Of a stretch of 11,886 nt of DNA, positions 1-11,886 are shown piece after piece (the stretch's first letter is position 1; the number at the start of each line of letters is the position of its first letter). The position numbers and the translations under genes were made by a program. The notes under the pieces are model-generated. The model ran no database searches, was not told where the DNA came from, and saw nothing but the letters and a program-made list of their open reading frames with translations. The DNA is from a virus, in the UHGV virus genome UHGV-0180981; one strand, 5' to 3'.

Positions 1-76
1 GCGAAATCGGTAGACGCAGTTGATTCAAAATCAACCGTAGAAATACGTGCCGGTTCGAGTCCGGCCTTCGGCACCA
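1..76 (+). tRNA. leuX: tRNA-Leu (anticodon CAA), 3' portion; the first ~9 nt of the gene lie upstream of the window
   Basis: Sequence matches the recognised leuX tRNA from D-arm onward: anticodon loop with CAA at 26-28, long variable arm, T-arm GGTTCGAGTCC, acceptor 3' end GGCACCA ending at 76. Confidence 0.9.
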
Positions 77-77
77 A
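46..77 (+). repeat. Left copy of 32-bp direct repeat (tRNA 3' end; attL-like core)
   Basis: CGTGCCGGTTCGAGTCCGGCCTTCGGCACCAA is repeated exactly at 10288-10319; flanks diverge immediately outside the repeat. Confidence 0.8.
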
Positions 78-556
78 GTCACTAAATTCCTTACAATACA
101 GCTGGTTAGACGATTAAATCTGTCTCTTTTGCCTGTAAGAAATGCTCTGTTATGTCCCTTGAAAAAGCCGCTGTGGTTGATAGTGGTAATTGGGATGTTA
201 ACTCATAGCGGCGTGTCGTTCCAGGCGTCAAACACGTACTGACTCAACTTGAAAGCTATGACGTAGCCACCGTCTCTAAACAATCCCAAAAACTTTTAGT
301 GAAGCGCATTTTAGCCCGATGCCCCCGTTCTGTCGCCGTCGCGAGACGCCGCAGGGGATAAACAGGTTTATGGTGGTCACGGTACTTGCAGACCATATGC
401 AAGCTCTGCCAGCGGTTCGGCCTCGCTCCCCTTGGGTACATGGTCATCCTGATAAGCCTCACTAACTGACATAACCCTGATGAAGTCGCCAGAGGCTCCG
501 CTTGTTGTCTTACCACCAACGGGGCTTTATGGATTCTATTGCGGTATGTTTGAAAG

Positions 557-580
557 CGCGCGGGGGTTCATTCCCGCGCG
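557..580 (-). terminator. GC-rich hairpin 10 bp downstream of the 304-aa ORF stop (weak U-tract)
   Basis: CGCGCGGG (557-564) pairs with CCCGCGCG (573-580) around an 8-nt loop; on the minus strand only about 3 U follow, so intrinsic termination is uncertain. Confidence 0.35.
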
Positions 581-589
581 TCCGGCGCT

Positions 590-1504
590 TTATGGTAAGT
601 ATTTAAGTATTTCTGCTGCCCAGTTTACACGGTGGATGACACGGGCATGGTGCAAGTTTCCGTCTAGTATTTCGGCTTTAGTTAGCTGGGATAACTGCTG
701 CCAATTATTGTTAAGTATATAAGTTGCGTTATTACATTGTGAGCTTTCTAGCACGTAAATGTTTTGGCCTGTGAACCCAAATATCACGTAGCCTTGGAAC
801 CCAGCTTGCCCAACCGCTACGAAATCTGGTTTTTTACTATTGATAAGTTCAAGTCTGCCTTCAACAACAGCGGTATTGCCCTTTCCCCTGATCTTAATAG
901 CTGAAAGGATTTTTGAACCGATAGTACTCCAAGGCTGTTGACCCTGAGGCAGGAGGCTCCAGTTTAGTTTTATAGATTTACTTTTAACGATGGTATTAAG
1001 TTGGTCGTCAACAGTTTCGCACAACCCAAAAAGCTCTAAAAAAAGATTAATGCAGTGAGCCACTAACTCTTTGTTGTTAGCTGTCAAACTTAGCTTTGGA
1101 GAGATGATCAACTTCTCCCCTTGCAGATTCTCTACAATCTTTAACTCTATGCTTGGTGGAGGGGTGAGGATTCTCTTGTAGCGCTTATACTCAATTTCAC
1201 GAGTGTCAGTAACTTCTTGAGTTGCGCCCCCTCCGATCCATTGCTTTCTAGTCCATGAAATTTGTCTGTATGCAGTTTCTTTAGGTGCTGTTTTGTCAGG
1301 TACTGATTTGCCATTAGCATTGAATCTGGTTATTGGCCCTAAAATTTTGGGGAGGACTTCTTCACCTAAAGCTCTTTGACTTGAGAAACCAATAGAGTCC
1401 GTTTTCCCCGCATCTGGCAAAGAATGTGCAATGTAGATATCACGGCCATCAAAGTTAGGTATGTAATTATCAATATTTCGAATACGCTTTTTCTGAATAA
1501 GCAT
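590..1504 (-). CDS. Hypothetical protein, 304 aa, no recognisable family; AT-rich foreign-looking cargo gene
   Basis: Longest ORF in the AT-rich arm; ATG start with AGGAA about 8 nt upstream on the minus strand; hairpin follows the stop; no motifs recognised by eye. Confidence 0.6.
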   Translation of the reverse strand: MLIQKKRIRNIDNYIPNFDGRDIYIAHSLPDAGKTDSIGFSSQRALGEEVLPKILGPITRFNANGKSVPDKTAPKETAYRQISWTRKQWIGGGATQEVTDTREIEYKRYKRILTPPPSIELKIVENLQGEKLIISPKLSLTANNKELVAHCINLFLELFGLCETVDDQLNTIVKSKSIKLNWSLLPQGQQPWSTIGSKILSAIKIRGKGNTAVVEGRLELINSKKPDFVAVGQAGFQGYVIFGFTGQNIYVLESSQCNNATYILNNNWQQLSQLTKAEILDGNLHHARVIHRVNWAAEILKYLP

Positions 1505-1636
1505 GGATCGTTCCTTTTGATTTTATCTTACTGTTTACATAACCAACCAAGCCGGGCACAATCGAGCCGTTAGAAACGATAGTGAGGCTAACAATCGTTA
1601 TGAGTTTGCAGACTCATGGCGGTCATGCTTCATAGA

Positions 1637-1667
1637 CCGGATTCACGCAGGTGACTCCGGTTTTTTT
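1637..1667 (+). terminator. Rho-independent terminator (plus strand)
   Basis: CCGGA-T-TCAC / GTGA-C-TCCGG stem with 4-nt loop, followed by a run of 7 T (1661-1667). Confidence 0.55.
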
Positions 1668-2338
1668 ATGCCCATCATTTATACATGGGCACAACATATA
1701 GGGTGTGTTAATAAGATTACCCCCTACATGTTCAGCATTCTAGTTAGGATTCTTTGCAGTACAAGGGTTGATTTTGAGGTTAAATTGAGGTTGTCAAAGG
1801 GAAATTTCGACCAACCCTACGTGCCGTAAGGCTTAGGCTGTATGTCAATGTTTCAGAAAAAAAAATGAAAATTTGATCGAGTGCTGATTTCTTTAGCACG
1901 AGAACATGAGAACGAACCAAAATATTGCAAAGTTTTGAACAAAACTTGAACTGCCTCGTGTCTCCATAGCCAAGACGAATGCAGTTTAAATAAGCTAAGT
2001 CAGCTCTCAAAAGTCCTTTATGACCCGAACCAAAAAATGTACCTCTTAAACCCCACCGCAAGCGGCTCTCCGGGGTTTGTGCGCGTGGAGTAATGCGGTT
2101 GTACTGGGTATGTGCGCACAACCCTCTACAAGCCGCATTCTACCGTTAGCCTATAGCTGAATCCCCGGCTTGAAAAATTGTACGCTTATGGTTGCCCCTC
2201 CCTCAACTGTATAGCTCGCCCGCGCCCCCGTGCGCATGTGCGTGCCCGCGCGTCAGGGGTCGCTGAGAAAACCCTAAGATTTTGCTCATCCGAGACAACC
2301 GTTGCAGGCGCGTGTTGCCGAGGGCACACTGCTAGTGT

Positions 2339-2448
2339 TTGATGGTGTCATCAATCGTTCGATTTTTGCTACCTTCCTGAGTGATTACTATCTGGTGTCA
2401 TCAATTTAGGGTTTGACTAAATGCTACCACCAATGCAATGATGCTACC
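2339..2448. promoter_or_regulatory. Repeat cluster upstream of serine recombinase gene (candidate res/operator sites)
   Basis: TGGTGTCATCAAT exact direct repeat at 2343-2355 and 2393-2405; first copy sits in inverted repeat TTGATG-gtgt-CATCAA (2339-2354); TGCTACC three times (2367-2373, 2422-2428, 2442-2448). Confidence 0.4.
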
Positions 2449-2479
2449 GTTTTGTGATACCAGACGGGTGAGGTGAACC

Positions 2480-3055
2480 ATGAGGACTTTTATCTATTGC
2501 CGCGTTTCAACACGCGAGCAGGATACGCAGAATCAGGTGCTGGCTATTGAGCGTGCCGGGTATAAGGTGCCGGAGAGCAGGGTAATCAGTGAGGACATTT
2601 CCGGTAGCGTTCAGGCTATGCAGCGCCCTAAGTTTCGGGCGATGGTTGAGCATAAGCTGGAAGCGGGAGATCAGCTTGTCGTGCTGAAACTGGACAGGCT
2701 GGGGCGCGACAACATCGACGTGCAACAGACCATCGACATGCTGTTAGAACGTGGCGTGAAGGTGGTGTCTCTTGACCTGCCTGCGCGTGATCTGACTTCA
2801 TCTGAGGGCAAGCTAATCCGCCAGATGTTTGGAGCCTTTGCTGAGTTCGAGCGAAACCGTATCCGTGAGAGGACGCTTGACGGGCTGGAGAAGGCGAAAG
2901 CCAATGGCGTTAAGCTGGGACGCAAGGAAGCCACCGACACCACTCAAAAGGTGCAGGAGCTGCGGAGTGAGGGGCTGTCTCAATCGAAGGTAGCGAAGCG
3001 TCTCGGAGTTAGTGTGAGCACCGTTAAACGCCACTGGAACAAGGGCGAGGGGTGA
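2480..3055 (+). CDS. Small serine recombinase (resolvase/invertase family), 191 aa
   Basis: N-terminal YCRVSTREQ catalytic-serine motif, LKLDRLGRD motif, C-terminal HTH (SQSKVAKRLGVSVSTVKRH); GAGGTG RBS about 8 nt upstream of ATG. Confidence 0.92.
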   Translation: MRTFIYCRVSTREQDTQNQVLAIERAGYKVPESRVISEDISGSVQAMQRPKFRAMVEHKLEAGDQLVVLKLDRLGRDNIDVQQTIDMLLERGVKVVSLDLPARDLTSSEGKLIRQMFGAFAEFERNRIRERTLDGLEKAKANGVKLGRKEATDTTQKVQELRSEGLSQSKVAKRLGVSVSTVKRHWNKGEG

Positions 3056-3994
3056 TGACCTACAAGCGAACGAGGTGCTACGACTGGCCGTTACTGGGCT
3101 GTGGGTGATGGATTACCTACAGCTTTTGTATTTATTTCAGAGGGTTATGTTATGCTTAATATCATAACGATATGATTTATAATGTATTTTCGTGTTACTT
3201 GCGGCTCTTGATGTGAAGAGGTGGCGGGGCTTTAGCCGTGCCAGACGATGAACATCGAGATCAGATTGTGAATGTGATTTATCACTGAACAATTCAAGGG
3301 ATGGGGCAGGGGAAGGGATCAAAGGCTGCGTTGTCCAATCACTAAGCTAGATTTGAAGCTGGTGAACACGTTACTAGTATCTTTAAAGTTGCATTTAAAA
3401 TGCATGTACAAAAAAGGGTTCTTCCCTTACATCCCTTCTCCTAAATGTAGTTACGAGTGCTTCGCTCTCTTCACTTGCTGCGCTTCTCGCTATGCTCCAG
3501 CCCGCTCCATCGCCTTTGGCTCATTCCCGGTCTTCGCCCGCTGCTGATGCTCGGCCACTCTACGCAACCGTGCTTGCCGTGGCAGGCAACGCGGCGGGAA
3601 GGTGTAGTGGTACGGTACTATGTATCGGTATTATTAATGTATTCAATCACATACTGTTATCAGTAGGTATCCTTCAAAACATCTTCATCCATTTCTGTAT
3701 CATTCAATCATCTTTCTTGTTCGTTTCCTTTCAGGTCTTAGCCGTTGTTCATTGGTCTTACTGCCTGCTGTGCTACTGCCAGCTATGGCACGCCGTTACG
3801 GTCTACTGTGTCACCTGTCCTACTGCGTTCACTGTCTGCCGTCTGTCATCCTGTCGGATTCCATCCGTCATCCGTTCCGCGCTCGCTTGTTTCGGCTGCG
3901 CCGCGCTCGCTCTGCGTATCTAGCGATACTCTATCACTATAGACACTTTCATAATTATCTAATGATTACAGTAACTTATATTTTTAATTTTAAA

Positions 3995-4255
3995 GGCTAC
4001 TAATAAGGAGATATAGAGCATTACTTTCCCGCTTTTGACCGACAAAAATCGCGTTGTTAAGTATTGCCAGCCCAGGCCCAGTAAGGCTTAGCGAGGTGGT
4101 GGTTAAAAATTGACCTAATGAAAGTATCTACTAAGGAGAAAGAATAACTCCCGAAGCGAGACAAACTCTCCGATTTTGAAAGTGACTATTAAGGCAGATA
4201 AAGACACTGACACTGTTGCCGACATGAAAACCTCTATAAGGGCAGAGAGTCTGCC
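3995..4255 (+). repeat. Four degenerate direct repeats (iteron/operator-like), core CTAnTAAGG(n)AGA
   Basis: Copies at 3995-4019, 4124-4150, 4182-4209, 4231-4255, all in the same orientation in non-coding DNA upstream of the helicase-led array. Confidence 0.5.
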
Positions 4256-4316
4256 GCACCTGTACCACCGCCCCAACCTGAGCTAATACCTACCCCTATT
4301 TTCTGGAGATTTCACC

Positions 4317-6161
4317 ATGCCAACAAACCTACGCCGCCTGCTTGCGCAGGCTGCCGACGCTGACCCGCTCAATACTGCGGACGCAGATGTACAGCAAATG
4401 ATCGCTGACGGGACTGTTATTCGACGTTCCAAGATATGCCCCGTAAAGCGTAAACCCGTTAAGGCGGCATACAACACAAAGACCGAAGAGTTTTATTACA
4501 ATGCTGATGGTTCCGCTATGACCCTGCGGGAGTGGCGAACGCTGCACGGTGTTCAACCGAAGAAGCAAAAACAGCGCTCTGACGCTGGGTTGCGGCAAGT
4601 CATCCAGCCCGGCGACGCGATTCACTGTCGACGCGCTGAGATTGAGCAATGGCTAAATAAAAAGCCTGCTCGTTATGTTGAACCACTGCCGCCAGATTTC
4701 CCCGGCGTTCGCGTAGACGAGGCTGCATTGAAACCGCGCGAGCACGCCGTGCCGGAATCAACAACCGGACAGAATGCTTTTCTCAAAGCCTGCCGCGAGT
4801 TTCTGATTTGCGACGAGAAGACCATGCGCCGCATTAACAGGGGCATGAATAAACTGGAAGCGATGCGCAATACAGATTTCAAACGCTACGGGAACTCAGC
4901 GGAGTTTCGTCAATTGTGGTGTGGAGAGTCGAAACCTACCGAGGATAAATTTAACAGTACAAATCATCATTGTGACCCGAACGGCTTGGCTGCATCGCCG
5001 TCTATGCCGTCACTGAATACTGTGCCGTATGAGTTCCGTCCGCTGGTTCGCTGTGACCGAAACGCACGCGTCAGCCTGCTGCCACCCGATGGGCTGGAGT
5101 GGAGGCCGGGACAGTTGTCTGTTGCTGATGCGATCTTTACCCGTGGTAGGGATGTGCTTGCCGTACTGCCGACCGGGTATGGCAAAAGCGCCGCCTTCAC
5201 TTATCCACTGATTTATGAGTCCCGCGCTGGCATTGGCCTGTCTGTAATCGTGGTTCCTACTAATACCCTTAAGCGTCAGATTCTCCGCCAGTTGCGGGAG
5301 GCTGGCATTCACGCCGTGGCCTTTGGCGATAAGCTACCGAGGCACCGCAACGCACAACAACTGGCGGGACTAGCAGCCGGGGCGTTCCGGCTTGCTGTTG
5401 TTTCGCCTGAACATCTGGTTCCGTCGAGTCAGGTTCTCGCGGCGCTGATGGCTTATGGCGTTGATCGTTTTATTATCGATGAGGCACACACGGTCAAAGA
5501 CTGGGATTTCCGCCCAGCTTACGACGCAATGCAGCACACACTACAGAATGCTTTTCCCTCGGCTCAACGTTGCGTGTTTACGGCTACTCTACTACGTGAA
5601 AATGAGCGCGGTTTAATGGAGGCGCTGGGGTGCCGTGGCAATTACGTCACATTCCGTGCTGATGTTGCTCGCGAGCATATCCAGTTGATTCCGGTCAGGC
5701 AGTGCCGCGAACGTTTCCGAGCGGCTATTGGTCTGGTCGAGGCTCTGCCGAAAGAAGAGAAGACGCTTATTCTCGTCAATGACCTTAAAACGTTGCGGGC
5801 GTACCTGAAACTCTTGGGCGACCGGGCGCGGCCATATCACTCGAAGACGATGCACCTGAGCAACGAGGAACGCCACGCAAACGCTGAGTGGTTTGCCTCT
5901 ACGCCGGGCGCGATTCTTATTGCTACTAAAGCCTTCGGGCTGGGTGCTGATGTTCCTGATATCCGTAACGTTGTCGTGACATACGTCCCCGATGATTTGC
6001 CTGATCTCGTTCAGATGATTGGACGAGCCGGGCGCGATGGGGAACCTGCCCGCGCTTTTCTGCTGTGGTCATCGCTGGCGCTGGATGTTGCGCCTGATGA
6101 GCTTGCTTACTTCTACCGCCCTGAAAACTGCAACTGGCAGTACATCGCTAAATACCTCTGA
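4317..6161 (+). CDS. RecQ-like superfamily 2 DEAH helicase with uncharacterised ~270-aa N-terminal domain, 614 aa
   Basis: Motif I LPTGYGKS, Ia VIVVPTNTL, II IIDEAHTV with DWDFRPAY, III FTATL, VI GRAGRDG; ends about 45 aa after motif VI, so no RQC/HRDC; GGAG RBS. Confidence 0.9.
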   Translation: MPTNLRRLLAQAADADPLNTADADVQQMIADGTVIRRSKICPVKRKPVKAAYNTKTEEFYYNADGSAMTLREWRTLHGVQPKKQKQRSDAGLRQVIQPGDAIHCRRAEIEQWLNKKPARYVEPLPPDFPGVRVDEAALKPREHAVPESTTGQNAFLKACREFLICDEKTMRRINRGMNKLEAMRNTDFKRYGNSAEFRQLWCGESKPTEDKFNSTNHHCDPNGLAASPSMPSLNTVPYEFRPLVRCDRNARVSLLPPDGLEWRPGQLSVADAIFTRGRDVLAVLPTGYGKSAAFTYPLIYESRAGIGLSVIVVPTNTLKRQILRQLREAGIHAVAFGDKLPRHRNAQQLAGLAAGAFRLAVVSPEHLVPSSQVLAALMAYGVDRFIIDEAHTVKDWDFRPAYDAMQHTLQNAFPSAQRCVFTATLLRENERGLMEALGCRGNYVTFRADVAREHIQLIPVRQCRERFRAAIGLVEALPKEEKTLILVNDLKTLRAYLKLLGDRARPYHSKTMHLSNEERHANAEWFASTPGAILIATKAFGLGADVPDIRNVVVTYVPDDLPDLVQMIGRAGRDGEPARAFLLWSSLALDVAPDELAYFYRPENCNWQYIAKYL

Positions 6162-6198
6162 GTCGAAAGGCTCTCCCTGATTCTCTGGAGTTAATCAT

Positions 6199-6636
6199 AT
6201 GCCTGTTACCGAACATGCGCAGCGTCGTGCTGCGCGTGCGGATGCGCTCATCACCGCACAACTAGCCTTCGCCCTGAATGGGTACAACTGGGATGAACTG
6301 GCCGAACCTCATCGCAAGACCCTTAATCGTGAGGCCATCATTCGCGAGGTATCTACACCGCTGGAGCGATATTGCCTGCTGAATGATTGCGAGCCGTGGG
6401 AGTGTCTGGCCGCTGTACTGAACCGCATGAAAAGGCCGGATGGCTCGCGTCGCTGGAAAGCCGTCCGTTTGTCCGACCGGGTTTTCAATGGCCGAGTGCA
6501 TCCAGTGCGCAAAACGCCTGATGAAGTTTACGCCGCCATTGCCCGCCGCTTGTTCCTGCCGAAGCCCGTGCATCAAGAAGTGATACAGCACATCCGTGCG
6601 CTTGGCTTGTTACCAATTGGAGACAACCACCAATGA
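6199..6636 (+). CDS. Hypothetical protein, 145 aa
   Basis: GGAG RBS 9 nt upstream; 37 bp after helicase stop; stop overlaps next start (ATGA). Confidence 0.6.
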   Translation: MPVTEHAQRRAARADALITAQLAFALNGYNWDELAEPHRKTLNREAIIREVSTPLERYCLLNDCEPWECLAAVLNRMKRPDGSRRWKAVRLSDRVFNGRVHPVRKTPDEVYAAIARRLFLPKPVHQEVIQHIRALGLLPIGDNHQ

Positions 6637-6842
6637 CGAAATCTGAATTTGAAAATGAAACATGGCGAATGAAGGGCTTGCTTCTTGGGGCGCTGATTCG
6701 CCGCCTTGAGGAAGATAAGGCTGGCGAGTCGCGCATGGTCGCAGCGGAGTTATCCAGTGCGGTCAACTTCCTTAAGGCCAACGCCGTAGAAGCGCCGGAC
6801 ACATCATTCAACAACGTGTTCCCGGAGGATGACGAGCAATGA
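6633..6842 (+). CDS. Hypothetical small protein, 69 aa
   Basis: ATGA overlap with upstream and downstream genes; GGAGA RBS. Confidence 0.55.
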   Translation: MTKSEFENETWRMKGLLLGALIRRLEEDKAGESRMVAAELSSAVNFLKANAVEAPDTSFNNVFPEDDEQ

Positions 6843-7015
6843 CCCCTGAACAATTCAGACAATGGTTCGCCACGCTGCCACCGAACTATCAGAGCACCGC
6901 ACGCACCATGTACGACAACGCCCGCAAGTCGGGCACACATACCGCGTCAAGCCTTGCGCTGATTCACACGTTGGTTACTGACCAGATCAAATTTGATTCG
7001 GAGTTTAATTTATGA
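6839..7015 (+). CDS. Hypothetical small protein, 58 aa (below the ORF-track length cutoff)
   Basis: Translated by hand: ATG at 6839 overlaps upstream stop (ATGA), stop at 7013-7015 overlaps next start at 7012 (ATGA); GGAGGA RBS about 9 nt upstream. Confidence 0.45.
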   Translation: MTPEQFRQWFATLPPNYQSTARTMYDNARKSGTHTASSLALIHTLVTDQIKFDSEFNL

Positions 7016-7575
7016 CTTTGAGTATTACCGATATCCAGCGCATTAACGCGCTGGCTCATAAGCACCTAAAGAACAATGAAGAGATTGCAGCGGAGACAGG
7101 TCATACCCTGACCGATATTGATGCTGTAATCCGTGGCGTCTATGTCGATGACTTGGCCGAACATTGGAAAGACGATGCTGATATTACTCTGGCGGAGTAC
7201 AACGCCATCCGCAGCCGCTATAAGCCCGGCAAGCTGCACCGCGATACAGAGTTTATGATTGCCCGCGATATGCTGATTCGCCCTGAGACTGTGCTGGCTA
7301 TCGCCCATTCCCGCTTTAGCAACGTCCACACTCACCCAGTGCCGAAAGCCGTCAAAGCAAAGCCGGAGAAAGCGAAAGTAGTGCGCAAGTTGGTGCCTAC
7401 TGATTTAGATGAAATTCACAAGTTAGAGCGCTTCGGTTGGCCTGCTGCGGAGATCGCCGGGAAGCTGGGCGTCCCTGTTGAGGTCGTCGCGCATGTGCAA
7501 CGCTGCCTGAGAAATCGTTGGTCGTACCCGGATACTCTGGAGTCTGTTAACTCCAAATTCAGCGAGGCTGAATGA
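7012..7575 (+). CDS. Hypothetical protein with putative HTH motifs, 187 aa
   Basis: GGAG RBS 8 nt upstream; HTH-like segments near N-terminus and in LERFGWPAAEIAGKLGVPVEVV; ATGA overlap at both ends. Confidence 0.6.
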   Translation: MTLSITDIQRINALAHKHLKNNEEIAAETGHTLTDIDAVIRGVYVDDLAEHWKDDADITLAEYNAIRSRYKPGKLHRDTEFMIARDMLIRPETVLAIAHSRFSNVHTHPVPKAVKAKPEKAKVVRKLVPTDLDEIHKLERFGWPAAEIAGKLGVPVEVVAHVQRCLRNRWSYPDTLESVNSKFSEAE

Positions 7576-7808
7576 TGGCAGAGAACGAACCTCTGCACCC
7601 CGCCGTTAACCCTGATCTCTACGTGAACCTTGACGAACAACGTGAAGGATACGCCCCGTTTGAATCACGCGGCTGGGATGTTCTGACAAAGAACCTGTCC
7701 GGGGAAGGGCGAACTGACCCCGGCCAAATGCTTAACCAGAATCCGAAACAACGCCCGCGCGGCTCCGTTGGTGAGCGTCGTTGGCTTCGTAAACGTGGAT
7801 TACTTTAA
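7572..7808 (+). CDS. Hypothetical small protein, 78 aa
   Basis: Start overlaps upstream stop (ATGA); basic C-terminus. Confidence 0.5.
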   Translation: MMAENEPLHPAVNPDLYVNLDEQREGYAPFESRGWDVLTKNLSGEGRTDPGQMLNQNPKQRPRGSVGERRWLRKRGLL

Positions 7809-7820
7809 CGAGGAATTACC

Positions 7821-8060
7821 ATGAGCAAAACTATCGTATTGCTGCCGCCACGCAAGAATACAGACTGGGCTGCGCAATTAAAGCTGATTTCTGAATCGCT
7901 TGAGGTGAGTCAGGCAGACCTCGCCCGCGCCTATCAGGTTGATCGTCGGGATATGGGTAAAGCGTATCACGGTGTGCGCAAACTGCCGGAACGTTGTGTG
8001 CCTGTTCATATGCTGTTGTTAGCGCAGGTACACGACTTTAGAGCATTATCAGGAGAATAA
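7821..8060 (+). CDS. Cro/YdaS-like HTH DNA-binding protein, 79 aa
   Basis: GAGG RBS; HTH followed by LPERC motif (SQADLARAYQV...GVRKLPERCVPV) resembling phage Cro/YdaS-type regulators. Confidence 0.6.
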   Translation: MSKTIVLLPPRKNTDWAAQLKLISESLEVSQADLARAYQVDRRDMGKAYHGVRKLPERCVPVHMLLLAQVHDFRALSGE

Positions 8061-8063
8061 TTT

Positions 8064-8744
8064 ATGTCTGACCAGAATGTTAATCCGTACCTTTCCGGTG
8101 CTGATACTGCATCGCAGCAATCGCCGTACATGGCTGCACCTGTTGGCGCTGACAATGGCGCATCCCGCTTTAGCTCTGCGCCTGCTGATGCTGATTTCCT
8201 CCGTACCCAACCCGTTAACGGTAATGATGGCGGCCAATGGAATAATGGCAGTATCGCGAATCAGCAGGATCAGAACGCTGACAGCGCCGGGGCGCAGGTG
8301 GGCGATACTATCTCCCTGATGGATGGAACAGCTATTGAGTACACCGCCGAGCTGCAAGGATTGATGGGACAGTTTCATCAGTCTGTCGAAAGCCAGCTAG
8401 GGCAAGGGACAGTTGACGCTATGTTGCAGTACGCTGGCACGCTCGATGCCGGGACGCAATCGACCCTTGAACGGATGGTTATGTCTGGCGACCCTGCGCA
8501 GATGCAGCGAGCCGTTCAGTATCTGCAAGAGAGGATGGCTGGCGGTTCCATTACCGGTTACGTCCCGAACGGCCAGACTGCCGCGCAACCTGTCGGAATG
8601 TCACATGCTGAGTTTATAGCAGCGTATGACCAGCTTTCGCAGTGGGCGCAGCAATCAGGGTATGGCCCCGGCCATCGCCAGTACGACGAACAATACCGCG
8701 CTCTGGTTGCGCAGCGCTCCGCTGGCAAACGTGCTGGCCGCTAA
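8064..8744 (+). CDS. Hypothetical protein, 226 aa, low-complexity N-terminal half, helical C-terminal half
   Basis: AGGAGA RBS 8 nt upstream; starts 3 nt after previous stop. Confidence 0.6.
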   Translation: MSDQNVNPYLSGADTASQQSPYMAAPVGADNGASRFSSAPADADFLRTQPVNGNDGGQWNNGSIANQQDQNADSAGAQVGDTISLMDGTAIEYTAELQGLMGQFHQSVESQLGQGTVDAMLQYAGTLDAGTQSTLERMVMSGDPAQMQRAVQYLQERMAGGSITGYVPNGQTAAQPVGMSHAEFIAAYDQLSQWAQQSGYGPGHRQYDEQYRALVAQRSAGKRAGR

Positions 8745-8861
8745 CACCCAACGGTGGAATGCGCCCTGCAAGACTGAGTGCGCACCAACCCGGTACTACC
8801 ACACCAATCTATGCGCATGAGTCCCCGCAAGCCGTATTCTGCGCGGCATCTGAAAGCCTGT

Positions 8862-8887
8862 TTTTAATTAACCGAGGTTCGTAATGA
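8862..8887. promoter_or_regulatory. hix/gix-like 26-bp site with core AACCGAGGTT
   Basis: Core 8870-8879 is the gix crossover-region sequence; each flanking half-site matches the hix half-site consensus at about 8/12; overlaps the ATG at 8884. Confidence 0.25.
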
Positions 8888-9297
8888 GTACCTGTAATTT
8901 CCATGCCGTGGAGCGTGTCGCTGACGTGCGCCCGGATTTCGCCTTGCCGCTGGGTAGATGCGATCACATTTACCCTGAGCGTGTGCAGCACGTTTTCAAT
9001 CCAGACGAGGCGGTTTATATCGTTGCCCGGTCTGCCACATCCGGCACCCGCACATCTGGCGTTAGCCGTGGGCTTTCCCCTGTGCTGCCGCCGAAGATGG
9101 CCGAGCGCATGCGCGAACGTGAACGGCACGAGAAGAATCGAGCCAGACCCCGCAATGTGATCACTGAGGCAGTACGCGCTGACATTATCGAGCGCTCTGC
9201 AAAAGGTCAGAAGAATCGTTACATTGCAAGCAAGGTTGGTGTGTCTGAAACCTCTGTGCGGAAGGTGTTGAACATGGCGCGTATGAGTGCGCACTAA
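8884..9297 (+). CDS. DNA-binding protein with C-terminal Hin/resolvase-type HTH, 137 aa
   Basis: C-terminal RPRNVITEAVRADIIERSAKGQKNRYIASKVGVSETSVRKVL resembles the Hin DNA-binding domain; no catalytic domain; true start may be an internal Met. Confidence 0.55.
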   Translation: MSTCNFHAVERVADVRPDFALPLGRCDHIYPERVQHVFNPDEAVYIVARSATSGTRTSGVSRGLSPVLPPKMAERMRERERHEKNRARPRNVITEAVRADIIERSAKGQKNRYIASKVGVSETSVRKVLNMARMSAH

Positions 9298-9493
9298 TGC
9301 AAGGTAATACGTTCGCCTTACTTCACGCGCATTAACCCCTGAGAACCGCGCCAGCTCTGGCCTCAAAACGCCCATTCGGGGCACCTCATCCCTTTAATCG
9401 ATACCGTTCTGAATCCTGCCTCGGCGGGAGGATTCCGCACGTCTGTGCCATGACGATGGCGCGGGCTTCATCAACCTATGTAGGAGTTTTGTT

Positions 9494-9991
9494 ATGGCTG
9501 ATACTTCGTACAGTCCCGATCTGTTTCGCCCACACTATGGCGGGGTGGAATCCGACAATGATATTCACATCGAGGCTTATGACCGGGACATCCAGACCCG
9601 TTTAGAGTCCAAATCTGTATTTCTGGCCGAGGGGCTGTCTACATACAGGCCGCTGAAAGCCAGCAACCAATATCGTGTTGATCGCCTGAGTGGTGATCTG
9701 GAGGTGAAGGGCAGAGCCGCAGGGCAATCGCTGGAGCATACCGCCGTTAAGTCGGACAAGCTGATTATCTCTGTGGATACGCTGAGCTATCTCCGCATCC
9801 CGATTGACTATCAGGAGGACTGGACAGCACCCACTTTTCGCTCAGAGCTGAGCCGCAATATGGGTACTGCTCACGCTAAATTCTACGACGAAGCGCACAC
9901 CATCCAGCTAATCAAAGCGACTGACTTTGTATCGCCGCCGACACTGCAACCAACGTTTAACCCACTAAGCGAGTCCATTCCAGAGCAATAG
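9494..9991 (+). CDS. Hypothetical protein, 165 aa; possibly an N-terminal fragment of a T7-like major capsid protein
   Basis: AGGAG RBS 8 nt upstream; by-eye resemblance to T7 gp10 N-terminal region (LF...GG, ED...RSExxxxxGxxxA); ORF ends at about half normal capsid length. Confidence 0.55.
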   Translation: MADTSYSPDLFRPHYGGVESDNDIHIEAYDRDIQTRLESKSVFLAEGLSTYRPLKASNQYRVDRLSGDLEVKGRAAGQSLEHTAVKSDKLIISVDTLSYLRIPIDYQEDWTAPTFRSELSRNMGTAHAKFYDEAHTIQLIKATDFVSPPTLQPTFNPLSESIPEQ

Positions 9992-10154
9992 CATCCCGAA
10001 ACAATCGCGCTTGGCGTACATCGCGTGTCCCTGTGCTTTTCATAAAGTAGCGCTTCCCTTGGAACAGGTGGCGCATGTAGTTGGGGATAGCTATCCGCAC
10101 GAGGTAATTCCCGCAGGGATCTAAAACTAGATAACGATCTCTCTTGAAACTCAT
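9957..10154 (-). pseudogene. Tyrosine integrase N-terminal remnant (about 65 codons)
   Basis: YLVRIAIPNYMRHLFQGKRYFMKSTGTRDVRQARLFRDAIALEWTRL fits the integrase N-terminal arm-binding pattern; stops after 65 codons, no catalytic domain; sits about 130 bp inside the right repeat. Confidence 0.35.
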
Positions 10155-10159
10155 ACAAA

Positions 10160-10185
10160 CCCCGGTTATGTTGTCGGGGCTTTTT
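10160..10185 (+). terminator. Rho-independent terminator (plus strand) near right end of island
   Basis: CCCCG (10160-10164) pairs with CGGGG (10175-10179), optionally extended by a G-U pair, followed by 5 T (10181-10185). Confidence 0.5.
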
Positions 10186-10287
10186 CATGGCTAAACAGTC
10201 TGTGAAATGTGCCGGGGTCATGAGCTTTAGTCTAGCTAGTTCAACAAGTTAACGATGATTGTTGAAGCAAGCTAAGTCGCTATAACC

Positions 10288-10319
10288 CGTGCCGGTTCGA
10301 GTCCGGCCTTCGGCACCAA
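10288..10319 (+). repeat. Right copy of 32-bp direct repeat (attR-like; partial tRNA 3' end only)
   Basis: Identical to 46-77; upstream sequence does not match the tRNA body. Confidence 0.8.
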
Positions 10320-10333
10320 AAGATGCAAATCAA

Positions 10334-10357
10334 AGTCGCTTAAGGGCGGCTTTTTTT
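10334..10357 (+). terminator. Rho-independent terminator, probably the native leuX terminator displaced by the insertion
   Basis: AGTCGC/GCGGCT stem (one G-U pair), 6-nt loop, 7 T (10351-10357), immediately after the right repeat; no equivalent follows the tRNA at 77. Confidence 0.6.
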
Positions 10358-10714
10358 GTGTCTGAAATACACGTAAAGTTTTCCTTTCAACGGAAGACAA
10401 TCTGATTCAGCCAATATCAAATTTCTTATAAGTATAGAACAGAATATATTCTCATTCGATAATTGTCATATTTGTGCATAAGCTTTCCGGTGATTTTGAA
10501 AGGTTATTTGTCTTAGCCTGACGCTTTCCGCTTTATCCTGGAAAAGGAATGTCTGCTGTCCCGCATGGTTTAAACATCTCACATCTGCTGTAACGAACCT
10601 CAAACTTTCTCCATCATTGATTAACTTGCTGTGATTTTGGTCATTGCTCGGGAAGCTTCAGAAAGTTAAAGTAAAAATTATGTTCCTAAAATGTATGCGC
10701 AGGCCTGCATAACA

Positions 10715-11886
10715 ATGATGAATAAATCCAATTTTGAGTTCCTGAAGGGCGTCAACGATTTCACCTATGCCATTGCATGTGCGGCGGAAAATAACTACCC
10801 GGATGATCCCAATACTGCGCTGGTAAAAATGCGTATGTTTGGCGAAGCGACGGCAAAACATCTTGGTCTGCTGCTGGATATTCCTCCCTGTGAAAATCAG
10901 CACGAACTCCTGCGTGAGCTTGGAAAAATTGCCTTCGTTGACGACAGCATTCTTTCCGTGTTCCATAAATTACGTCGTATTGGTAACCAGGCTGTCCACG
11001 AATACCATAACGATCTTGATGATGCTCAGATGTGCTTACGGCTAGGTTTTCGGCTGGGCGTCTGGTACTACCGTTTGGTTACGAAAGATTATGACTTCCC
11101 TGTGCCTGTTTTTGTTTTACCGGAGCGCGGAGAAAATCTTTACCGTCAGGAAGTACTGACGTTAAAACAAAAGCTAGAAGAGCAGTCACGTGAGAAAGCA
11201 CTCAGTCAGGCTGAACTCGAAGCACAGCAGCAGAAACTGATTGCTCTGAACGGTTATATTGCCATTCTTGAAGGTAAGCAGCAGGAAACTGAAGCACAGA
11301 CATTGGCTCGTTTCTCAGCACTGGAAGCGCAGTTAGCTGAGAAAAATGCGAAGCTGGCTAAGCTCACGGAACAGGAAAGAAAAGCCTACCATAAAGAAAT
11401 TACCGACCAGGCCGTCAAGCGTACACTGAATCTCAGTGAAGAGGAGAGTCGCTTCCTGATTGACGCTCAGTTACGTAAAGCGGGTTGGCAGGCGGATAGT
11501 AAAATGCTGCGCTTTGCCAAAGGTGCTCGCCCGGAACCGGGTATTAATAAAGCGATTGCCGAATGGCCTACGGGCGTAGATGAAACGGGTAAGCAAGGAT
11601 TTGCGGATTATGTTCTGTTCGTTGGCCTCAAGCCCATCGCCGTTGTCGAAGCAAAACGTAAAAATATTGATGTTCCCGGCAAGCTGAATGAGGCTTATCG
11701 ATACAGTAAATATTTCGATAATGCGTTTTTGCGCGATACGCTTCTGGAGCAATTTACCCCCGACGATATACACGAAACCCTACCGGTTTACGAAATCAGC
11801 TGGCAAGATACCAGCGGCACACAGCGTTTTAAAATCCCCTTTTGCTACTCCACCAACGGGCGTGAATACCGCGCGGCAATGAAGAC
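10715..11886 (+). CDS. hsdR: Type I restriction enzyme R subunit (HsdR, EcoKI-like), N-terminal ~390 codons; continues past window end
   Basis: Hand translation from ATGATG at 10715 is open to the window end; N-terminus MMNKSNFEFLKGVNDFTYAIACAAENNYPDDPNTAL matches the recognised EcoKI-family HsdR N-terminus; coiled-coil Q/E/A-rich segment. Confidence 0.9.
   Translation, partial: MMNKSNFEFLKGVNDFTYAIACAAENNYPDDPNTALVKMRMFGEATAKHLGLLLDIPPCENQHELLRELGKIAFVDDSILSVFHKLRRIGNQAVHEYHNDLDDAQMCLRLGFRLGVWYYRLVTKDYDFPVPVFVLPERGENLYRQEVLTLKQKLEEQSREKALSQAELEAQQQKLIALNGYIAILEGKQQETEAQTLARFSALEAQLAEKNAKLAKLTEQERKAYHKEITDQAVKRTLNLSEEESRFLIDAQLRKAGWQADSKMLRFAKGARPEPGINKAIAEWPTGVDETGKQGFADYVLFVGLKPIAVVEAKRKNIDVPGKLNEAYRYSKYFDNAFLRDTLLEQFTPDDIHETLPVYEISWQDTSGTQRFKIPFCYSTNGREYRAAMK

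Follow-up and report, generated by a model that had tools for sequence, protein, structure and literature searches.

What are the two short open reading frames that converge at the right end of this island, and how did they come to overlap? The DNA concerned is a stretch of 11,886 nucleotides (UHGV virus genome UHGV-0180981, hereafter the window), in which a plus-strand frame at 9494–9991 and a minus-strand frame at 9957–10154 run into one another and share 35 bp (9957–9991). We conclude, with a probability of roughly 0.92, that the region 9494–10287 contains the point at which a single internal deletion of 5,158 bp closed up in a small tRNA-Leu(CAA) island.

The plus-strand frame (9494–9991) is a truncated major capsid gene encoding 165 amino acids. 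Codons 1–158 (9494–9967) are native and are followed by seven junction codons and a stop; the ATG is closely preceded by AGGAG, a ribosome-binding motif. The product matches PHROG 267, ‘major head protein’, with an E-value of 8.8e-33, over profile positions 15–173 of 410 only. Its residues 1–158 are identical to the first 158 of the 331-residue capsid protein of Escherichia coli KFu019, while its last seven, SESIPEQ, are the antisense of an integrase gene. A sequence-only reading had taken this frame for the N-terminal half of a T7-like capsid protein, and the profile match together with the 158 of 331 shared residues bears this out. The label ‘T7-like’ holds in the broad sense, the closest phage capsids being those of Bonnellvirus (T7 supergroup, order Autographivirales) at 54–55% amino acid identity; the Pfam Gp10A-like match reaches only E 0.005.

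How much of a capsid protein is left? The full-length 331-residue protein matches phrog_267 at E 6.7e-67 and, over residues 1–324, solved phage capsids in the PDB at E 6e-79 to 5e-56. Of the HK97 fold, the fragment retains an N-terminal region homologous to phage capsids (N-arm, E-loop and spine helix). The complete protein of about 330 residues, with the A-domain and P-domain sheet that capsomers require, is not present, 158 of 331 residues being left. In the AlphaFold model of a 90%-identical homologue, whose mean pLDDT of 56.8 permits coarse use only, the spine helix spans residues 117–141 and all the confidently folded elements lie at 162–329, in the missing half. As modelled, the folded core of the capsid protein, at about residues 160–290, is lost with the deletion.

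The minus-strand frame (9957–10154) is a truncated tyrosine integrase gene encoding 65 amino acids: codons 1–63 (10154–9966) are native, and two junction codons, the antisense of the capsid gene, precede the stop. It matches Pfam DUF6538, a domain characteristic of this subgroup of integrases (E 1.9e-7 over profile positions 1–53 of 60; 31.1 bits, the curated cutoff being 27), and residues 1–63 are identical (63/63, tblastn) to the N-terminus of the 401-residue KFu019 integrase. The matches of both frames far exceed what chance would give. It had been read as the N-terminus of a tyrosine integrase, which it is; the ‘arm-binding’ role also ascribed to it may be suggested by analogy, and a search of the literature on DUF6538 returned nothing. 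The Phage_integrase domain (PF00589) of the KFu019 enzyme occupies residues 230–381, whereas the stub stops at 63. A tblastn search of the window with two tyrosine integrases detected no other integrase-like sequence, and Pfam scans of all the larger window ORFs detected no Phage_integrase domain. The earlier statement that the island has no catalytic integrase domain was thus upheld across the window.

If both genes are cut short, where is the remainder? A megablast search with the region, run on 5,426 complete E. coli genomes, led to the closest intact relative, that of strain KFu019 (river water, Japan), whose island adjoins tRNA-Leu. Window 1–9968 corresponds to positions 5702–15669 of the KFu019 locus (L001) with 0 mismatches, and window 9966–10319 to L001 20825–21178 with one mismatch, at the last base. 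In KFu019 these two parts are separated by 5,158 bp that are absent from the window, so that an intact island of 15,432 bp stands against a window copy of 10,274 bp. The two fragments are the ends of full-length KFu019 genes lying 5,158 bp apart, as expected if an internal deletion took the 3′ parts of both, and the search for intact relatives that had been proposed as a check on this suggestion thereby shows what lay between them.

The KFu019 island opens with an unknown gene, after which come a serine recombinase, a helicase of the DEAD/DEAH class, eight small genes and the 331-residue capsid protein, then an HNH endonuclease, two unknowns, an endonuclease-VII-like protein, a methylase, a controller protein, a PvuII-type endonuclease and the 401-residue integrase, which reads inward from attR. 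In the interval that the capsid and integrase genes bound, annotation and Pfam/PHROG scans identify HNH_3, Endonuclease_7, N6_N4 methylase, HTH_3 and PvuII endonuclease domains. Judged by its sequence, KFu019 carries the closest intact relative and is a candidate, rather than the proven, ancestor. Because both flanks are 100% identical we infer that the genes lost are those listed from KFu019; the integrase-side cargo slot does vary between islands. A single event is the simplest reading, and successive deletions are also possible.

At the junction itself (9966–9968) lies a 3-bp microhomology, TAA, common to both parental sequences. Beyond TAA, alignment of the parental sites reveals no further similarity, no long repeat and no recombinase site. 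Since only these 3 bp are common to both ends, the event was illegitimate, microhomology-mediated recombination, and neither homologous nor site-specific. Replication slippage or end joining at TAA joined capsid codon 158 to integrase codon 63, and this tail-to-tail fusion created the two short converging frames. The same step removed the HNH gene, the two unknowns, the endonuclease-VII-like gene and the PvuII-type restriction–modification cassette (methylase, controller and endonuclease). The integrase-side cargo slot is wholly removed by the deletion. That the invertase, the helicase, the eight small genes and the left-hand cargo gene are all intact suggests a recent event. Variants of the island diverge by 3–18%; since none of the genes left of the junction has changed here, the deletion is recent relative to that divergence.

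What, then, are the limits of the island, and what does it still contain? It extends over window 46–10319 (10,274 bp), with attL and attR at its ends, and has the borders of a tRNA-integrated island, a tRNA gene together with a direct repeat of the 3′ end of that gene. The tRNA-Leu(CAA) gene (1–76, plus strand) lacks its first 9 nt, which lie beyond the window start; it is the integration target and its 3′ end is attL. Rfam matches it at 1–73 with 38.4 bits, and on a longer contig of the same lineage (L003) ARAGORN places tRNA-Leu(caa) at 499–583, equivalent to window −8 to 76. A repeat search gave attL (46–77, plus) as the left copy of a 32-bp exact direct repeat, CGTGCCGGTTCGAGTCCGGCCTTCGGCACCAA, and attR (10288–10319, plus) as the right copy, the duplicate tRNA 3′ end at which the island stops; blastn returns the same repeat as a window self-match, 46–76 against 10288–10319. 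In alignment the window diverges from KFu019 directly after the ...GGCACCA of attR. A chimera, considered since the right flank is only 95.6% identical to KFu019, was rejected: all the differences lie beyond attR, in the host flank. The integrase upstream region (10155–10287), which adjoins attR, is identical to that of KFu019 in alignment.

Next to the tRNA lies a variable cargo slot, occupied here by a 304-residue protein (590–1504, minus). This protein has zero Pfam, PHROG, PADLOC or PDB matches, and PDB sequence searches with it and with the 226-residue protein mentioned below found no significant match. Other genes occupy the slot in strains S1, E2348/69 and UTME-7, that of UTME-7 encoding a TIR protein. 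An intact Hin/Gin-type serine DNA invertase of 191 residues follows (2480–3055, plus), with matches to Pfam Resolvase (8.3e-37) and HTH_7 and to phrog_125, ‘DNA invertase’ (5.3e-55). The gene is flanked by about 1 kb and 1.26 kb with no convincing ORFs (window 1505–4316), and a repeat search found neither bracketing inverted repeats nor an invertible segment near it. The invertase protein WP_001258716.1 is identical in KFu019, S1 and UTME-7, the neighbouring genes of UTME-7 being about 82% identical to those of KFu019.

The intact 614-residue DEAD/DEAH-box and Helicase_C helicase (4317–6161, plus; Pfam DEAD 7.5e-22, Helicase_C 5.2e-14) presumably serves in replication of the island. It matches the PADLOC ‘DpdF’ model PDLC02858 at E 6e-273 and the other Dpd genes are absent; helicases of this island family probably served to build the model. 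A run of eight small genes, conserved and all intact, occupies 6199–9297 (plus) and encodes proteins of 145, 69, 58, 187, 78, 79, 226 and 137 residues; they are likewise annotated in KFu019, S1, E2348/69 and UTME-7. The 137-residue protein has a C-terminal HTH (HTH_23, E 7e-4). The 69-residue ORF (6633–6842, plus) shows a weak likeness to the T7 gp18 small terminase (PF11123, E 3e-4; phrog_891, E 0.021; both sub-threshold). Antisense to the 137-residue HTH gene (8884–9297) is a 191-residue ORF (8809–9384, minus) that several public records (P0008–P0011) give as a protein and that is probably a spurious call; a chimeric entry, P0014, ties it into the capsid cluster.

Outside the island, the start of hsdR of a type I restriction enzyme is found at 10715–11886 (plus; Pfam HSDR_N 6e-10, DUF4145 1.1e-4). 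It belongs to the host or to a neighbouring element. Its product is 1170 residues long on longer contigs, where hsdM and hsdS come next, and it is named in Enterobacter. The operon hsdR, hsdM, hsdS is complete and begins 396 bp past attR (window 10320–11886; L003 11222–20498). A YjiV-like helicase gene follows hsdS, and hsdR is only about 82% identical to the E. coli alleles.

Can such an island still move? The sole remaining recombinase is the Hin-type invertase, whose class carries out inversion or resolution of DNA but not integration. As it is not an integrase, the suggestion made from the sequence alone that the element cannot excise by itself is a reasonable one. It follows that this copy should be unable to excise, to integrate or to contribute capsid by itself and, with capsid and integrase function both lost, would be fixed in the chromosome and inherited vertically. 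Since attL and attR are intact, a cognate integrase acting in trans might still excise it.

Is the position of the break a matter of chance? E. coli UTME-7 carries a related island (82–88% identical) at tRNA-Gly, and there too the capsid gene is truncated. Its 1.4-kb deletion starts within one or two bases of the window break (capsid nt 474–476; L001 15667–15670), while the right end lies elsewhere, inside a 141-residue ORF, and the junction shows a 3-bp microhomology of its own, TAC. The shared break point falls at window 9964–9970 and at 11450–11460 of the UTME-7 locus (L008). To judge from the two junctions the UTME-7 deletion is independent of that in the window, and their shared left end could reflect either a break hot spot or chance. 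A further decayed copy is that of Cronobacter dublinensis (L045 10001–10588), in which capsid residues 1–62 are fused in frame to an HNH endonuclease domain; here the capsid gene breaks at about nt 188, and the helicase gene is also truncated.

One refinement of the deletion, which would leave the main explanation in place, is that it started where the capsid gene has a specific site of breakage or of replication pausing, from which microhomology joined the end to a variable downstream point. The break might, for example, be a nick for which the adjacent HNH endonuclease, of the I-HmuI type, or some phage nuclease is responsible. We regard this as unlikely. It would account for the common left end and the 3-bp microhomology of two independent deletions, and the break lies 1–4 bp from the centre of CAACGTT-N16-AACGTTG. 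Homologues of the island HNH protein, moreover, stand directly beside the capsid gene in Drulisvirus phages, and with HNH genes of this family thus found beside the capsid gene in T7-supergroup phages as well, it is conceivable that a nuclease has its target in that gene or close to it. (In Klebsiella phage KPPK108.1, a Drulisvirus, the homologue, at 43% amino acid identity, is directly upstream of the capsid gene; L046 2447–3955.) On the other hand, only two events coincide, the third, that of Cronobacter dublinensis, starting elsewhere in the gene, at about nt 188, and the odds of a coincidence by chance are some 5/996 (about 0.5%) per capsid-hitting event.

A hairpin or cruciform at the shared break was ruled against, the palindrome folding no better than shuffled sequence (z −0.5 and −1.5). 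A maximum-chi-square scan of the capsid genes revealed no recombination hot spot at nt 475, most break points falling near nt 125–150. Deletion by the island's own Hin-type invertase was rejected as well; comparison by eye with Hin/Gin crossover sites gave no convincing hix or gix match, and there are no inverted repeats near the invertase gene.

Could the remnants instead have been kept because they are useful? The capsid fragment, the DUF6538 stub or both might be retained for a function, the fragment, for example, as a dominant-negative subunit that poisons the capsid assembly of infecting T7-supergroup phages. Two independent truncations do leave nearly the same piece of 158–159 residues (N-arm, E-loop and spine helix), the fragment still has a ribosome-binding site of its own and, presumably, the promoter, and the lineage is present in several samples. 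Against this, the copies are nearly clonal (0–2 differences) and so too alike to gauge selection, the confidently folded half of the protein is gone, and selection at the level of the protein would not yield break points identical to the base. We consider retention for use very improbable.

Does the junction exist outside this one assembly? Fourteen contigs, drawn from an NCBI isolate assembly, from ENA metagenomes and from Logan, carry the exact 165-residue frame, junction tail included. The five loci that were retrieved differ from the window by 0–2 bases over up to 11.9 kb, and all those long enough have the hsdR–hsdM–hsdS neighbours. None of the 5,426 complete E. coli genomes has the junction, and its exact 40-mer has 0 matches in a one-genome-per-species contig collection, which could easily miss a carrier. 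One carrier is named Enterobacter roggenkampii (NCBI), and the flanking chromosomal DNA either matches E. coli at only about 84% identity or finds no counterpart in it. The lineage that carries the scar includes Enterobacter roggenkampii, an example being the isolate behind GCA_050772235.1, and its absence from the E. coli collection follows from an Enterobacter host. That the junction is an artefact of assembly or a chimera, the real genome having both genes intact, might be argued from those two absences, yet it is next to impossible given an exact junction frame recovered by different pipelines from different samples (one NCBI isolate, two ENA metagenomes and Logan unitigs), a collinear join that preserves island order and orientation, and a host that accounts for the absence from E. 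coli.

The deletion apart, window 46–10319 is 100% identical to L001 5747–21178. An island identical in E. coli and in Enterobacter roggenkampii implies a very recent intergeneric transfer of the intact form.

Which form of the gene is the norm? The capsid gene is carried by 59 of the 5,426 complete E. coli genomes and is full length in 58 of them; the island backbone, too, is found on 59 chromosomes. It is full length also at eight loci of other enterobacterial species (Enterobacter, Kluyvera, Kosakonia and Trabulsiella), and all loci with the 24-mer that borders the break on its left, 24 of them metagenomic and two from IMG/VR, read on into the capsid gene. A homologue search with the 165-residue frame yielded only five matches, mostly partial entries at contig ends, and the full-length protein was used as the query instead; its database homologues are 328–334 residues long. 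Across 27 distinct full-length capsid genes there are no indels or stops and the median pairwise dN/dS is 0.10, a pattern of substitution that indicates strong purifying selection. By the same comparison of sequences, the change is a deletion in the window copy, not an insertion in KFu019.

The earlier interpretation would have had to be abandoned had neither frame matched a profile, or had the homologues of 9494–9991 always been about 165 residues long and unrelated to capsids; both frames gave significant profile matches, and the homologues are capsids of twice that length. That the short frames are native forms, one from a family of about 165 residues that is not capsid and the other a small stand-alone DNA-binding protein, scarcely merits belief: both frames are open and keep their start codons, that of the capsid fragment preceded by its AGGAG motif, but the seven- and two-residue tails each come from the antisense strand of the other gene, and the short database entries are partials at contig ends.

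To what kind of element does the deleted copy belong? Among the 5,426 complete E. coli genomes, 59 contain a member of the family, which is also present in Enterobacter, Kluyvera, Kosakonia, Trabulsiella and Cronobacter. Its members possess a single capsid gene of the T7-supergroup type and no recognisable portal, protease or large terminase (L001 5693–21178; L002, L009–L017). Satellite-like features are the integrase and att sites, the helicase, the lone capsid gene, the nucleases, the two cargo slots and a size of about 15 kb. Among the cargo are genes of the defence type: KFu019 has the PvuII restriction–modification system, S1 and UTME-7 have a TIR protein, and Cronobacter has AbiTii; in the integrase-side slot, PvuII, the TIR protein or AbiTii is found according to host (L001 17915–19754; L002 18027–19369; L045 11759–12676). 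A decayed Bonnellvirus prophage was considered and rejected. When the 17 proteins of the KFu019 island were compared with Bonnellvirus Lidtsur by tblastn, the capsid (55%) and, weakly, endonuclease VII were all that matched; the island being otherwise unlike Bonnellvirus, it is not a decayed prophage of that type.

With its constrained capsid gene, its length of about 15 kb, its integrase and its identical copies in two genera, the intact element looks, as far as its genes tell, like a phage satellite. We suggest tentatively, as a possibility short of even odds, that the intact family is a new type of satellite that parasitises virulent T7-supergroup (Autographivirales) phages with its own capsid, nucleases and perhaps a gp18-like TerS, that the window holds a dead copy of it and that the shared break marks a nuclease target. 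The searchable literature held no published description or name of this island family, which does not in itself prove novelty.

How does the family compare with known systems? The capsid-forming PICIs (cf-PICIs) encode capsid, portal, protease, head–tail connectors, TerS and TerL (bioRxiv 10.1101/2022.09.08.507074; PMC13612085). The intact island resembles them in its size of about 15 kb, its integrase and its own HK97-fold major capsid protein. It differs in having, of that set, the capsid gene only, with at most a weak gp18-like TerS candidate, plus nucleases; Pfam and PHROG scans of every KFu019 island gene recovered the capsid alone, the TerS-like matches being sub-threshold. Furthermore, its capsid is like those of virulent T7-supergroup phages, whereas cf-PICI capsids are like those of temperate siphoviruses. 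In SaPIbov5 a satellite-encoded homologue of the capsid protein, Ccm, redirects the size of the helper capsid (PMC5052747, PMC8569155). The island shares with it the single homologue of a helper major capsid protein and the lack of other head genes; it differs in bacterial phylum and in type of helper, and any tie of the island to a helper phage is putative.

P4-like satellites carry an integrase, Sid, Delta, Psu, an AlpA-type regulator and a primase/alpha protein (PMC13612085), together with defence hot spots (PMC13586616, PMC8628076). Like them the island is enterobacterial, integrated at a tRNA gene, of the 10–15 kb class and provided with a variable integrase-side slot for defence genes. 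The island recombinase differs in its DUF6538 N-terminus, and none of Sid, Psu, Delta, AlpA or the P4 alpha primase appears among the Pfam/PHROG matches of the island, from which remote homologues might escape. Finally, the window copy resembles decayed (‘anchored’) islands and cryptic prophages, in that it is linked to a tRNA gene, has intact direct repeats and has suffered an illegitimate deletion that truncates its recombinase and structural genes. In contrast to these, the intact parent is here known to the base (KFu019), a single clean junction is visible and the remainder is undamaged, all of which argues for a very recent event.

The scar reflects the ordinary decay that mobile elements undergo; events of this kind are known, whereas islands of this kind are poorly known. 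It shows, to the base, a mobile element turning into a fixed piece of chromosome, and it corrects the annotation of two ‘hypothetical proteins’, which are pseudogene fragments. The context outweighs the scar itself: the island family, its identity across two genera and the recurring break point. Should the family turn out to consist of satellites of virulent podophages, the window copy would supply a natural control that lacks both capsid and integrase.
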